DNA of 64,000 nt, from NCBI GenBank assembly GCA_965249275.1, contig CBDFLQ010000005.1, positions 608,001-672,000 on the forward strand, read 5' to 3'. Below, piece by piece: positions 6,941-58,378 of the stretch. The notes under the pieces are model-generated. The model had not been told where the DNA came from. It made no database searches and was given only the letters and a program-made list of their open reading frames with translations. Source of the DNA: Dehalococcoidia bacterium (GTDB lineage Bacteria > Chloroflexota > Dehalococcoidia > Plut-88900). A program made the translations under genes and the position numbers. Every line of letters begins with the position of its first letter. Within the stretch, counting starts at the first letter, position 1.

Positions 6941-7069
6941 TTCAGTGGGGTATTTTAACCCATCCCCTGTGCCGTGGAAGAGGAGACATGTAGTTGATAG
7001 TGCGGATACTGTGGCATGTGCTTTACTCAAGCTGGGGGCAGAGGCATTTGATCCCGTTCACATAGAGGG

Positions 7070-7750
7070 GTGACATAACCCTCTTGACATTATAAGACGT
7101 ATGTTCTATTATTGGGCCAGTCTAGACCCGATACCCACCTTAAGGAGGAACTAAAAACTAGGGAAGCCCACCTGGCCCACCCGAGGACTCAACGTCCAAG
7201 CCCATCCCAAAGGACGGCCCACACGCCGCCCCACGGCACAAGCGAACGCCGCCATCTCCTCATCCCCACCGGGTCCCGTGCCCCCTTCCCTGACCACAAG
7301 GCGATGGAAGACGCCCTGGACCGTACTTGAAAGTCTCCTCACGGAGCAACCTTGTCCTATGGAGCGGAACGGGGCAGCCCGTAGCCGAGGACCGCTCGGC
7401 TCTCCGTCCGCTTCCTCAAATAAAACTGGACTGCCCGCCACTCCCGGCTCCTGGATACAGGCGGCGAACCGGATACCCCGTACTCCTGCGAGGGGAACTG
7501 ACCCTGGACTTTCCCCTTCCTGCATGTCTCGCAGCGCAGCCAACCCTTATTGGAGCCTATGACGGATGACGGACCCGTACGTCCGACCATACTTCCAGGT
7601 CTAGGCGGCGGCGGAGCCCCGTCCCCACGTTCCTGGGACGCCTCCAAGCCCGCATTATCTAAAAATAGGGAGCCGAATCCAGCAAGCGTCTTCCATCGTC
7701 AACCCAAAACCCAACAGACAGAACGCAAACCCAAACCCCACAACTGAAGA
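7070..7750 (+). ncRNA. Putative large ncRNA element, copy A of a three-copy family
   Basis: Promoter 7084-7112 and a leader homologous to copies B and C. Helix 7300-7314/7686-7700 encloses a 371-nt structured segment, followed by a C/A-rich tail. No conserved ORF. Confidence 0.7.
7084..7112 (+). promoter_or_regulatory. Sigma70-type promoter with LexA-box-like site (copy A)
   Basis: TTGACA-N17-TATTAT, with AGAC-GTAT-GTTC at 7095-7106. Confidence 0.65.
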
Positions 7751-7791
7751 AAAGGCCGGTGTGTCACTAACCTACCGAACGAGTACAGCAT

Positions 7792-7820
7792 TTGGACGGA
7801 AGCCACTAGACCGGTATAAT
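7792..7820 (+). promoter_or_regulatory. Promoter of tRNA-Pro
   Basis: TTGGAC-N17-TATAAT ending 22 nt upstream of the tRNA. Confidence 0.6.
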
Positions 7821-7842
7821 GGCCCAGTATCCTCCCTTAGCT

Positions 7843-7919
7843 CGGGGCGTGGCGCAGTCCGGTAGCGCGCATCGTTCGGGACGATGAGGTCCCGGGTTCG
7901 AATCCCGGCGCCCCGACCA
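7843..7919 (+). tRNA. tRNA-Pro (anticodon CGG)
   Basis: Acceptor stem CGGGGCG/CGCCCCG, anticodon arm CATCG-TTCGGGA-CGATG, GGTTCGAATCC T-arm and encoded CCA. Confidence 0.97.
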
Positions 7920-36104: not shown

Positions 36105-36792
36105 GGGATATTGAGTTGTAGCAAGGATTTGTGGGTTCATGTCTGTTCTGGAAGGGCAGGCGATGGAAGGTCCGGGACTAGAAACCAGGCCGTGGGTTGC
36201 TGCCGAGCCGTCGGCGCCGGGCTGGATTATCCCCACATGTTGTCGGCTGCGGTCAGGGTTGTGTGGGGCAGATCCCTCCGTGAGCGGCACTTGACCGGAC
36301 CGCTGACGGGGAAGATGCCGCCTTAGGCGGACTTTCATAACCGGCGTCCCGGTGCATCCGCCGGATAGACGGATGGCAGGGACGGCGGGACAAACAAGGC
36401 ACGAGGGCCTTGCTAAACCGGGGGTCGGTTGACCTACCGGGAAAACCGGCGCGCAATGGGCCGGGGTAAACGCACCCGATGATGGGGGGCGTTGAATCGG
36501 CAGGGGCGTCGTTGGACGGGGCCTGCCGAGCATAGTCTGTGGATCTTCCATCGCCTGGGTTGCGGGGGAAGGTGAGCCGAGGCCTTTGGTATGAGGAGAT
36601 GGCGGCTTTCGCTTGAGCCGAGGGGCGGCGCTTGGGCCGCCCTTTGGGATGGGCTGGGACGTTGAGTCCTCGGGGCCGGGGATGGGCTTCCCCCTGGGTT
36701 GTGGTTCCTCCTTAGGGTTTAGGGTGAGTGACGAGCTAGTCGGGGGTGAATATAGTACAAGTGTTTTGCTTTAGTCAAGGGGTTCGTGTCAC
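36105..36792 (-). ncRNA. Putative large ncRNA element, copy B (with a possible 3' extension to about 35855)
   Basis: Promoter 36749-36778 and conserved leader. Helix 36541-36557/36157-36173 encloses a 367-nt structured segment. Tail motif AACAGACA-GAAC is shared with copy A. Confidence 0.7.
36749..36778 (-). promoter_or_regulatory. Sigma70-type promoter with LexA-box-like site (copy B)
   Basis: TTGACT-N18-TATATT, with AAAC-ACTT-GTAC at 36755-36766. Confidence 0.55.
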
Positions 36793-36809
36793 TTTTTGCC
36801 AAGTGGGAT

Positions 36810-37151
36810 CACCCTCACCCTAGCCCTCTCCCATCAGAGGGAGAGGGGACAGGACGCCCCGCCCTCTCCGCCTCCGGGGATGGATTCCGGCTCGGCGGGG
36901 GGTGCGCCTTCAGGAGGGATGGGTTCCTGCCTCCGCAGGAATGACGGGGGAGTGGGGGGTGGGTGGGTGGGAGGCGATCACGTGGTACTGCTCCTATGCG
37001 GGCACCCCCCCGCTCATACTTCGAGAGCCTCCCGCCTCGGCGGATCTTCGACAGCACGATCGGGCCCGCCCGGGCCGTGGATTCGCGCCTGAGGCGTACC
37101 CTCCAGAGGCGAGTGGGGCACTTGCAGCCCGATCGGAGTCTGGAATGACGG
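36810..37151. repeat. Mosaic cluster of short palindromic REP/boxC-like repeats
   Basis: caccctcaccctagccctctccc..gggagagggga, ggattc..ggaatgacgg units and a cttcga..ctc/ag..cgg unit. Confidence 0.75.
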
Positions 37152-57157: not shown

Positions 57158-57805
57158 ATCTTCGATTGGGGTTTGGGGGTTTGGTTTGGTTGTTGGGGGG
57201 TAGGCGATGGAAGGTCCGAGACTCGTGTGCGGGGAGGCGGGAGGCCAGCCTGCGATGACCCCACGTGTCTCTTAGCTAGGCGGACGAGGTGAGTGGGGTG
57301 TTCTCGTCCACAAGACGCTTGGCTCGACCATTCGGAGGAATGGGAGCACGAACCCGCTGCCGTCGTCTACCGAACGGAACTCTCGGATGGTGACGACGGT
57401 GGAGTCCCATAAGGGCTCGATGGCCCTTAGCAAGCCCTGCATAGGCGGGCTGTTATATTTCGCTGGGCTATGCGCATAGCGTTGACTCGAACACTCCGGG
57501 TGAATGGTGCGTCGAGTAGGCTGGTCCCGCACGCCTACATGTTGCTTAGAGTTGATGGACCTTCCATCGCCTGATGGTTGGGGGGGGGTGAGCCGGGGCC
57601 TTTAGGTGAGGAGATGGCGGCTTTCGCTTGAGCCTGGGAGCGGCTAACGCCGCTCTTTGGGATGGGCTGGGACGTTGAGTCCTCGGGGGCCGGGGATGGT
57701 GTTCCCCCTGGGTTGTGGTTCCTCCTTGGCCTTGGGGTGGGTAACTGGCCAGTCGGGGGTGAATATAGTACATGTGTTTTGCTTTGGTCAAGGGGTTCGT
57801 GTCAC
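57158..57805 (-). ncRNA. Putative large ncRNA element, copy C
   Basis: Promoter 57762-57791 and conserved leader. A perfect 16-bp helix 57557-57572/57202-57217 encloses a 339-nt structured segment, followed by a C/A-rich tail. Confidence 0.7.
57762..57791 (-). promoter_or_regulatory. Sigma70-type promoter with LexA-box-like site (copy C)
   Basis: TTGACC-N18-TATATT, with AAAC-ACAT-GTAC at 57768-57779. Confidence 0.55.
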
Positions 57806-57822
57806 ATTTTGCCAAGTGGAAT

Positions 57823-58378
57823 CACCCTCACCAGCCTCAGGGATATATTGAGTCCCGCCCACCCGCCCTGTTTTATTGACATATCAGCCATGTTGCCCTG
57901 CAACATGGCTGATATGTCGTTACCAAGGGGGAGGGGAAGGAAGGCGAGGAATGGTGTGAGAGGGCAAGTCCTAGATTCCTCGCGGGGCGTCGGAATGGTG
58001 GGGAGAGGGGGTTGGGTGGAGAGGTTGAGGGTGGCCGCGACGGATTGGCATAACGGGGTCGCCACCCCTCTCGACCCTTCGACGGTGCTCAGGGTGAGCG
58101 GCCCCACCCCAGGGATGGATTCCGGCTCTCGGCGGCCGGAATGACGGGAGAGAAAGGGGTATGGGGCTTTCTAGGGACGCGACGGATTGGCAGTGCGGGG
58201 CCGCCCCCCCGCTCGACCCTTCGACGGTGCTCCCGCCTCGGCGGATCTACGACAGGATGAGCGGCCCCTCTCCAAGGATGGATTCACGCCTCGGCGCACG
58301 CCACAGGCGCACCCTCCCGAGGCGGACGTTCCGCTTGCAGCATCTTCGACCGGCTCTCGGGGGCCGGAATGACGGGGG
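57823..58378. repeat. BIME-like mosaic of nested palindromic repeats
   Basis: An interrupted boxC-like unit, a 19-bp perfect stem at 57878-57918, and two tandem composite units starting cgcgacggattggca near 58036 and 58178. Confidence 0.8.

Follow-up and report, generated by a model that had tools for sequence, protein, structure and literature searches.

The stretch of DNA analysed here, referred to as the window, comprises 64,000 nt of contig CBDFLQ010000005.1 from a Dehalococcoidia bacterium (positions 608,001-672,000, forward strand). It carries three copies, A, B and C, of a protein-less element of ~0.74 kb that encloses an RNA of about 650 nt. The element is composed of a left end, a sigma-70-type promoter, a leader of ~180 nt, a 5' arm, a core, a 3' arm, a tail and a right end. 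The two arms pair with each other across the core. The resulting closing helix lies at a distance of about 250 nt from the left end and about 90 nt from the right end of the element and consists of two parts: 15-17 bp (P1), followed by a small internal loop and a further 4-6 bp (P1b). It is retained in nearly all copies via compensatory change. In the window, the arms occupy the following positions:

7300-7320, + strand: 5' arm of copy A (P1 7300-7314, C7315 unpaired, P1b 7316-7320)
7678-7700, + strand: 3' arm of copy A (P1b 7678-7682, CAA 7683-7685 unpaired, P1 7686-7700)
36533-36557, - strand: 5' arm of copy B (P1 36541-36557, P1b 36533-36537)
36157-36181, - strand: 3' arm of copy B (P1 36157-36173, P1b 36177-36181)
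57557-57572, - strand: 5' arm of copy C
57202-57217, - strand: 3' arm of copy C

In copy A, whose RNA is read from the + strand, P1 is formed by GGCGATGGAAGACGC and GCGTCTTCCATCGTC and comprises 15 bp including one G·U. The unpaired C7315 lies opposite CAA in the internal loop, and inward of it CTGGA pairs with TCCAG to form P1b. The RNAs of B and C are read from the - strand, so that their arms are the complements of the intervals given above. In B, 16 of 17 positions of P1 are paired with A·C as the sole mismatch, and the helix is extended by GACTA/TAGTC. In C, all 16 positions pair. The core word GGCGATGGAAG occurs 11 times in the window with at most one mismatch, compared to 2.08 ± 1.5 times in shuffled sequences (0/100 reach 11). 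A long-range pairing in the three copies, with compensatory inner bases and copy-specific extensions of the helix, had been proposed in a preliminary description of the window. Every checkable detail of this proposal was correct for A, B and C, and both the compensatory bases and the extensions are present.

Retention of the closing helix

A profile search with the conserved stretch 5' of the 5' arm revealed 54 copies in the host genome (2.9 Mb, 7 contigs). Complete copies account for 53 of them; the 54th is truncated at a contig edge, and a separate arm search recovered its arms. Duplex prediction yielded a helix of 18-24 bp in all 53 complete copies. The duplex energy averages -37.3 kcal/mol when a copy is paired with its own 3' arm and -29.9 kcal/mol when the 3' arm is taken from another core cluster. 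Four further genomes of the genus contributed 30 loci, 28 of which fit the first helix pattern. One of the two misses, L011, carries a compensated change from U-A to C-G in the otherwise invariant helix core (GACGG/CCGTC), the other, L026, has decayed and pairs at 12 of 15 positions. A collection scan with a word from the leader found at least 80 loci. Among the matches listed, all come from six Dehalococcoidia chromosomes assembled from metagenomes, and the helix is present in 80 of 80 (14-25 bp). Twelve of these loci coincide with 12 of the 28 above, so that the related genomes contribute 98 distinct copies. Of these, 97 keep the helix, the exception being one decayed copy. The preliminary description had named further copies lacking arm complementarity as the observation that would speak against the pairing. 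Such copies were looked for, and 150 of the 151 distinct copies examined in the host and related genomes keep the helix.

Pair counts were obtained from an alignment of 81 copies (53 from the host genome and 28 from relatives). Paired cells make up 93.1% compared to 90.0 ± 0.3% after shuffling (0/500 reach it) and 32.5-56.2% when the partner is slid by 1-3 columns. The covariation score is 0.142 compared to 0.090 ± 0.005 in shuffles (0/500); here, related sequences may exceed shuffles without any structure, and the copies are not independent. The copies are split into helix classes: at pair 12, 44 copies have A-U and 33 have G-C, and at pair 13, 40 have C-G and 30 have U-A. The evidence for the helix gains weight from separate small compensatory events. 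In addition to the change in L011, the matches listed comprise GACGC/GUGUC with a G·U in 7 copies and GACAC/GUGUC in 1, GGCAAUGG faces CCAUCGCC in 4 copies and CCAUUGCC in 1, and one copy has the added pair GGUUCC/GGAACC. Furthermore, the sequence of P1b differs between core clusters with its complementarity retained. An inner helix that differs between core clusters and is nevertheless complementary argues for selection on pairing rather than on a recognition sequence for a protein.

The enclosed RNA

The core measures 288-520 nt in the host genome and 208-542 nt when relatives are included. The 53 cores of the host genome form ten clusters, and A, B and C belong to three different ones. Thirty cores of helix class 2 from several genomes can be aligned on a common skeleton that comprises P1, a CCCC/GGGG helix, a GCAG/CUGC helix and conserved single-stranded words. 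In the GCAG/CUGC helix, a base-pair swap is found at columns 459/535, with G-C in 16 and C-G in 9 sequences. Class-1 clusters share words, e.g. GGCAAACUUGGACA and GCAGCCAACCC. Within each helix class, the middle segment is a fast-diverging homologous fold with variable outer hairpins. The preliminary description had regarded it as variable cargo. Free inserts of this kind were not found; the cores are not unrelated to each other, because a skeleton of internal helices is conserved within each helix class.

At the DNA level, the modules of the element are shuffled. The distances of promoter, leader, core and tail are nearly uncorrelated between copies (Spearman 0.08-0.22), and 19 combinations of the four promoter classes and ten core clusters are seen. 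Among 44 pairs of copies that are alike in promoter and leader, 21 have cores of at most 60% identity. This means, like leaders do carry different cores, a point that the preliminary description had suggested checking. Conversely, 67 of 185 core-alike pairs have unlike promoters and 114 have unlike tails. Pairwise identity switches at the arms (e.g. in the copy pairs e0/e17 and e20/e10), on the 5' side sometimes inside the leader (e41/e20, e6/e5). B and C are 87.5% identical over promoter and leader, counted from the left end as far as the 5' arm, beyond which they diverge. The simplest cause of this shuffling is ordinary homologous exchange between conserved flanks. Such exchange is sufficient to account for the pattern. 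Thus, the earlier suggestion that the helix marks a boundary for swapping holds for the exchange of cores with breaks at the arms; of a dedicated recombinase, there is no sign.

In A, B and C, the promoter is located on the strand that gives the arms their 5' and 3' order. The sense strand of copy A folds with a z-score of -2.56 (0/20 shuffles as good), and P1 and P1b are part of both the minimum-energy and the centroid structure. For the antisense strand, the z-score is +0.11 (12/20 shuffles as good). RNA data were available in the form of assembled contigs. They stem from four studies with one RNA-labelled run each; for one of these runs the RNA nature is a guess, and two additional runs carry the label sponge metagenome. 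Contigs from all four RNA-labelled runs cover 7180-7698 at at least 95% identity and stop short of both the tail region (7701-7790) and the first 60 nt of the predicted transcript. In run X2, the three bins of the element have a depth of 28-116, whereas the other 27 bins of the 5-kb stretch have a depth of 0. Leader and core are represented in the RNA libraries far more strongly than the flanking genes.

The transcribed part of the orthologous copy is under constraint. The ortholog of copy A in another genome (L161) shows 97.8% identity over 1805 nt without gaps, and the site is filled in both genomes. Five changes in 657 transcribed positions compare to 24 in 641 and 6 in 188 positions of the flanking GHMP-kinase and amidase genes, i.e. 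the orthologous copy changes about four times slower than its neighbouring genes. No family of Rfam 15 was detected at the gathering score: the window yields only a tRNA, and 20 related loci yield only tRNA and 5S rRNA. With E-values up to 10, the best Rfam match of copy A is a microRNA model (19.8 bits compared to a cut-off of 88), and no match is better than E = 0.72.

Ends, relatives and placement of the element

Besides the arms, the following features were assigned in the window:

7044-7048, unstranded: left target-site duplication GCATT, the same 5 letters as at 7788-7792
7049-7075, + strand: left terminal inverted repeat of copy A, TGATCCCGTTCACATAGAGGGGTGACA, which recurs at many copies
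7084-7112, + strand: promoter of copy A, TTGACA-17-TATTAT (11/12 consensus; 2 promoter-like sites compared to 0.3 ± 0.6 in shuffles)
7119-7299, + strand: conserved C-rich leader of copy A (54 genome copies; 44% C, 22% G)
7321-7677, + strand: folded core of copy A (core cluster 1, 11 genome members)
7701-7757, + strand: C/A-rich, G-poor tail of copy A (no intrinsic terminator found on the + strand)
7758-7787, + strand: right terminal inverted repeat of copy A, ending in ...CGAACGAGTACA
7788-7792, unstranded: right target-site duplication GCATT
7793-7916, + strand: host promoter TGGACG-16-TATAAT (7793-7820) and tRNA-Pro (7843-7916), directly behind element A
36749-36811, - strand: left-end variant of copy B (starts at 36811) and promoter TTGACT-18-TATATT (36778-36749)
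36182-36532, - strand: folded core of copy B (core cluster 0, 13 members)
57762-57824, - strand: left-end variant of copy C (starts at 57824) and promoter TTGACC-18-TATATT (57791-57762)
57218-57556, - strand: folded core of copy C (core cluster 4, 4 members)

The ends of the element are inverted (TG..CA). Copy A is bounded by TGATCCCG... and ...GAGTACA between the two GCATT duplicates. The terminal inverted repeats read TGATCCCGTTCACATAGAGGGGTGACA on the left and ...GTGTCACTAACCTACCGAACGAGTACA on the right. The right end repeat is found in about 25 copies; in many others, B and C among them, the left end is a variant and a right end cannot be recognised. The left end and the reverse complement of the right end are ~60% alike. 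Duplications of 5 bp were found in at least 9 further copies (GCGGA, CACCG, CAGGG, CAGGT, TCAGC, GGGGC, CCCCC, CTCCC), and two copies (e51, e52) are without target duplication. A genome search located the end repeats almost solely at these elements. With terminal inverted repeats, target-site duplication, multiple copies and no transposase gene inside, the element has the hallmarks of a miniature inverted-repeat transposable element (MITE).

The promoters of B and C agree with the consensus at 10/12 positions. The leader is highly conserved in sequence, and RNAalifold predicts almost no structure for it (-7 kcal/mol on 122 leaders). All 122 aligned leaders, including those of B and C, invariably contain a perfect Shine-Dalgarno-like AAGGAGG (7142-7148 in copy A), which lies ~23 nt from the predicted start of the RNA. 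The tail has a mean composition of 36% A, 39% C, 14% G and 11% T across the family, and no intrinsic terminator was found in the tails of A, B and C. The leader word is present in 8/8 other genomes of the genus searched, with dozens of copies in each. Among the genomes searched, it was detected in 0/3 other genera of the family or order and in 0/29 other families of the class.

A sister family with about 9 loci (G000:C6:946440-947400, C5:734700-735640, C7:453280-454200 and about 6 more, all outside the window) has the same promoter module and another leader, in which AAGGAG is followed by ATG. Its closing helix is built on the same ATGGAAGGTCC/GGACCTTCCAT word. At G000:C6:141600-142500, a sister-family leader is joined to arms and core of the family described here (family 1). 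The class-1 copy L035 (G000:C5:487991-488572) contains an extra insert of ~140 nt inside its core. The start of this insert recurs behind the sister-family element at C5:734700; it is probably another small repeat. A lone left end repeat is located on the minus strand at L001:6700-6840 (G000:C6) directly before the groES promoter, and a heat-shock operator-like TTAGCACTC-N9-GAGTGCTAA lies between this promoter and groES.

The host genome encodes 22 rve-domain transposase genes. Among their carriers is a 1.08-kb insertion sequence, presumably IS481/IS3-like, that is present in 12 copies and has a 329-aa rve transposase, TGT..ACA ends and 5-bp duplications. Its 28-nt end repeat is ~61% like the right end of the RNA element, a partial match only, which makes the insertion sequence a candidate helper. 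An element with ends identical to those of the RNA element was not found in the host genome. The insertion sequence always lands in a repeated hairpin, GTCATTCC/GAGGC.CCGCGAGGAATC, and duplicates ATTCC or GGAAT (G000:C7:510553, C7:521651, C6:525070, C7:452670 and 8 more loci); several of its copies are less than 1 kb away from an RNA element. In contrast to the RNA element, it targets the hairpin at ATTCC and not promoter-adjacent sites.

The placement of the RNA element follows from 57 distinct right flanks of all genomes. Behind the right end, 5 letters are followed by T (49 flanks), T (38), G (46), A (34) and C (37). TTG is found at +6 in 31 of the 57 flanks compared to 0-3 flanks at ten other offsets, and 26 of these 31 have a -10-like hexamer 16-18 nt later. 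This means, the element sits at a fixed distance before host promoters and reads toward them. Copy A is placed in this manner before the tRNA-Pro promoter (7758-7820). A linkage to tRNA genes as such was rejected, with 2/53 copies of the host genome within 1.5 kb of a tRNA compared to 2.1 expected. In the related genomes, a tRNA or 5S rRNA lies within 1.5 kb at 6/20 loci (L002, L005, L007, L020, L029, L030).

Interpretation and comparison with known systems

The pairing is probably the closing stem (P1 plus 4-6 bp of P1b) of the folded core of an abundant, promoter-driven non-coding RNA of ~650 nt, which is carried on a mobile protein-less element, and it also marks the homology edges for exchange. 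P1 and P1b would close the core and thereby allow it to fold independently, whatever its outer hairpins. In addition, P1 would hold the conserved, largely unstructured leader beside the C/A-rich, G-poor tail. Transcription may end in this tail by a factor-dependent route, and the GC-rich stem could then halt trimming by 3' exonucleases. Ribosomes may bind to the AAGGAGG close to the 5' end and shield this end. Protective Shine-Dalgarno sequences of this kind are called STAB-SD. In Bacillus, strong Shine-Dalgarno sequences are reported to block RNase J1 (PMC5737220). On the DNA, the conserved arms and flanks would provide homology edges at which cores are exchanged by ordinary recombination or gene conversion.

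Several observations weigh against this interpretation. In the 81-copy alignment, pairs changed on both sides number 3 compared to 2.9 in shuffles (403/500 reach it), and further pair types number 11 compared to 12.1 (500/500 reach it). The large split into helix classes may reflect one old event inherited by many copies. The duplex energy is slightly better on the opposite strand (-38.5 compared to -37.3). G·U wobbles were counted in 27 cells at 8 site types and A·C in 11 cells at 4, which favours the sense strand only mildly among related copies; as a strand test, these counts were discarded as too weak to decide. The RNA evidence consists of contigs, which carry neither transcript ends nor strand. 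In runs X1, X7 and X10, core depth is no more than about 1-5 times that of the flanks, and this excess could partly be DNA carry-over of a multicopy repeat, because the leader signal is summed over many copies. Finally, the suggested roles in termination and exonuclease protection are drawn from base composition alone.

The preliminary description had envisaged a processing stem like the RNase III stems around pre-rRNA. Such processing would be an addition compatible with a closing stem: the P1/P1b duplex (20-24 bp) would be cut and the core freed from leader and tail. Such cleavage is possible, albeit clearly less likely than the closing stem itself. The total duplex length of 18-24 bp with small internal loops would suit it, as would the order of parts, in which a strong promoter and a leader precede a long-range helix that surrounds a structured RNA. 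A comparable duplex of leader and trailer surrounds the 16S rRNA gene of the organism itself, and in Neisseria, transcribed Correia inverted repeats form a duplex that binds RNase III and is cleaved or protected (PMC2649163). One contig of run X1 ends a few letters past 7698, the end of the 3' arm. However, the contigs give no readable ends, and the stop near 7698 is seen in one study only. Contigs from X10 (7283-7469) and X2 (7250-7351) span the border between leader and 5' arm; therefore, leader and core are at least sometimes joined. Moreover, the helix is broken after 15-17 bp, and a duplex of this length is short for a canonical RNase III site, for which about two helical turns are expected. 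Less probable still is a DNA cassette whose arms are the sites where a dedicated recombinase exchanges or excises the middle segment. The mosaic copies that break at the arms, the hybrid locus G000:C6:141600-142500 and copy e33, which appears to switch class inside its 3' arm, would be in line with it. Against it stand an inner helix that varies by core cluster with complementarity kept, the breaks inside the leader and the conserved flanks of 170-200 nt, which supply ordinary homology. Furthermore, the copies in the window have no recombinase gene linked to them, and neither a joint indicating circularisation nor an excised or circular form was found among the contigs of the RNA runs, which are poor evidence either way.

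Two further readings are very improbable. The arms might be the terminal inverted repeats of a second miniature transposon, composed of arms and core and nested within the outer element; an inverted repeat of 15-17 bp in two sequence classes could reflect two transposase specificities. However, a genome-wide search for the arm pair gave 56 hits that lie only in elements of family 1 or the sister family (family 2), in a constant place and never alone: 38 fall within family-1 copies already known, and 9 loci, namely 8 sister-family elements and the contig-edge copy, account for the remaining 18, with hits on both strands of each. As the arm pair was never found outside family elements, a nested transposon was rejected; in addition, there is no target duplication beside the arms, and the internal helices of the core covary. 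Least probable of all is a small or proline-rich protein to which the repeat would be incidental. It could draw on the perfect AAGGAGG 23 nt from the predicted RNA start, on the sister family with its AAGGAG and ATG, and on a C-rich strand poor in stops, with a stop-free sense frame in 12/53 cores compared to 5.4 ± 2.2 in shuffles. However, no ATG, GTG or TTG lies within reach of the AAGGAGG in family 1, and no conserved reading frame was found among the 53 cores: 41 are stopped in every sense frame, the 12 stop-free ones are mostly from one related cluster, the lengths modulo three are split 17/21/15, and indels shift the frames. The four open reading frames inside copy A have no Pfam match. 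A stop-free ring read round and round was rejected by the same analysis of stops and frames.

The non-coding RNA with a closed core can be compared to three groups of known systems, and none of them, i.e. promoter-bearing MITEs, rRNA stems and orphan large RNAs, fits the family. Correia elements of Neisseria (CREE/NEMIS) and promoter-bearing MITEs are likewise protein-less, multicopy and gene-adjacent and have terminal inverted repeats, target duplications and promoters (for MITEs, see the review PMC10969869). Transcribed Correia repeats also form an RNA duplex. In contrast to them, the duplex described here is internal, does not arise from the element ends and encloses a folded core of 208-542 nt, and the element of ~0.74 kb has a complete inward promoter, a conserved 180-nt leader and signs of RNA constraint.

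The processing stems of 16S and 23S rRNA resemble the element in their layout of strong promoter, leader and long-range helix around a structured RNA. They differ from it in that the element has no rRNA similarity and exists in dozens of copies with different cores; cleavage is only putative here. Homology to rRNA leaders was considered and rejected, as it is limited to the 11-letter word ACAACTGAATA, which is also located at the end of the element's tail. The unlinked 16S and 23S leaders (G000:C7:727200-727340, C5:432400-432500) both hold AACTGAATAG, in the case of 16S inside the flanking duplex. A closely similar word, CACAACTGAATAA, terminates the tail of the element. In front of the 16S promoter, the series GGGTACA, 5 letters and TTGACT resembles a decayed right end.

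OLE, GOLLD, ROOL and raiA are orphan large RNAs, and HEARO, the omega RNA of IscB and TnpB, belongs to the multicopy mobile-element RNAs. Like the RNA described here, they measure several hundred nt and have a multi-helix fold closed by a terminal stem, and HEARO also occurs in many copies on mobile DNA. Unlike for these RNAs, no Rfam match was obtained for the family, and no IscB or TnpB gene lies beside the copies in the window. A further difference is that the element has the ends and target duplications of a cut-and-paste transposon of the DDE type. Among insertion sequences that encode an rve-domain DDE transposase, the 12-copy one of the host genome shares with the element the 5-bp duplications and partly similar ends (~61%). 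In the literature searched, no description of this RNA was found.

The helix itself is an ordinary architectural feature, and the interest lies in its family. If the closing-stem reading is true, one genus of uncultured Dehalococcoidia gives more than 1% of the genome to mobile, promoter-driven, large folded RNAs. These would form a family without known relatives that is under constraint and exchanges its cores at a conserved closing stem. The family would be a natural example of modular evolution in structured RNA and a candidate for a new class of large non-coding RNA. Its precise placement beside promoters would further make it a possible bacterial counterpart of the promoter-targeting transposons of eukaryotes. 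A more speculative and rather unlikely extension is that the RNA is an active part of the element's life cycle, which guides the right end to a position 5 bp before a host -35 box or controls the adjoining promoter, with the core as a specificity or partner module and the leader as a constant handle. If so, the family would represent a new kind of RNA-dependent, promoter-targeting bacterial transposon.

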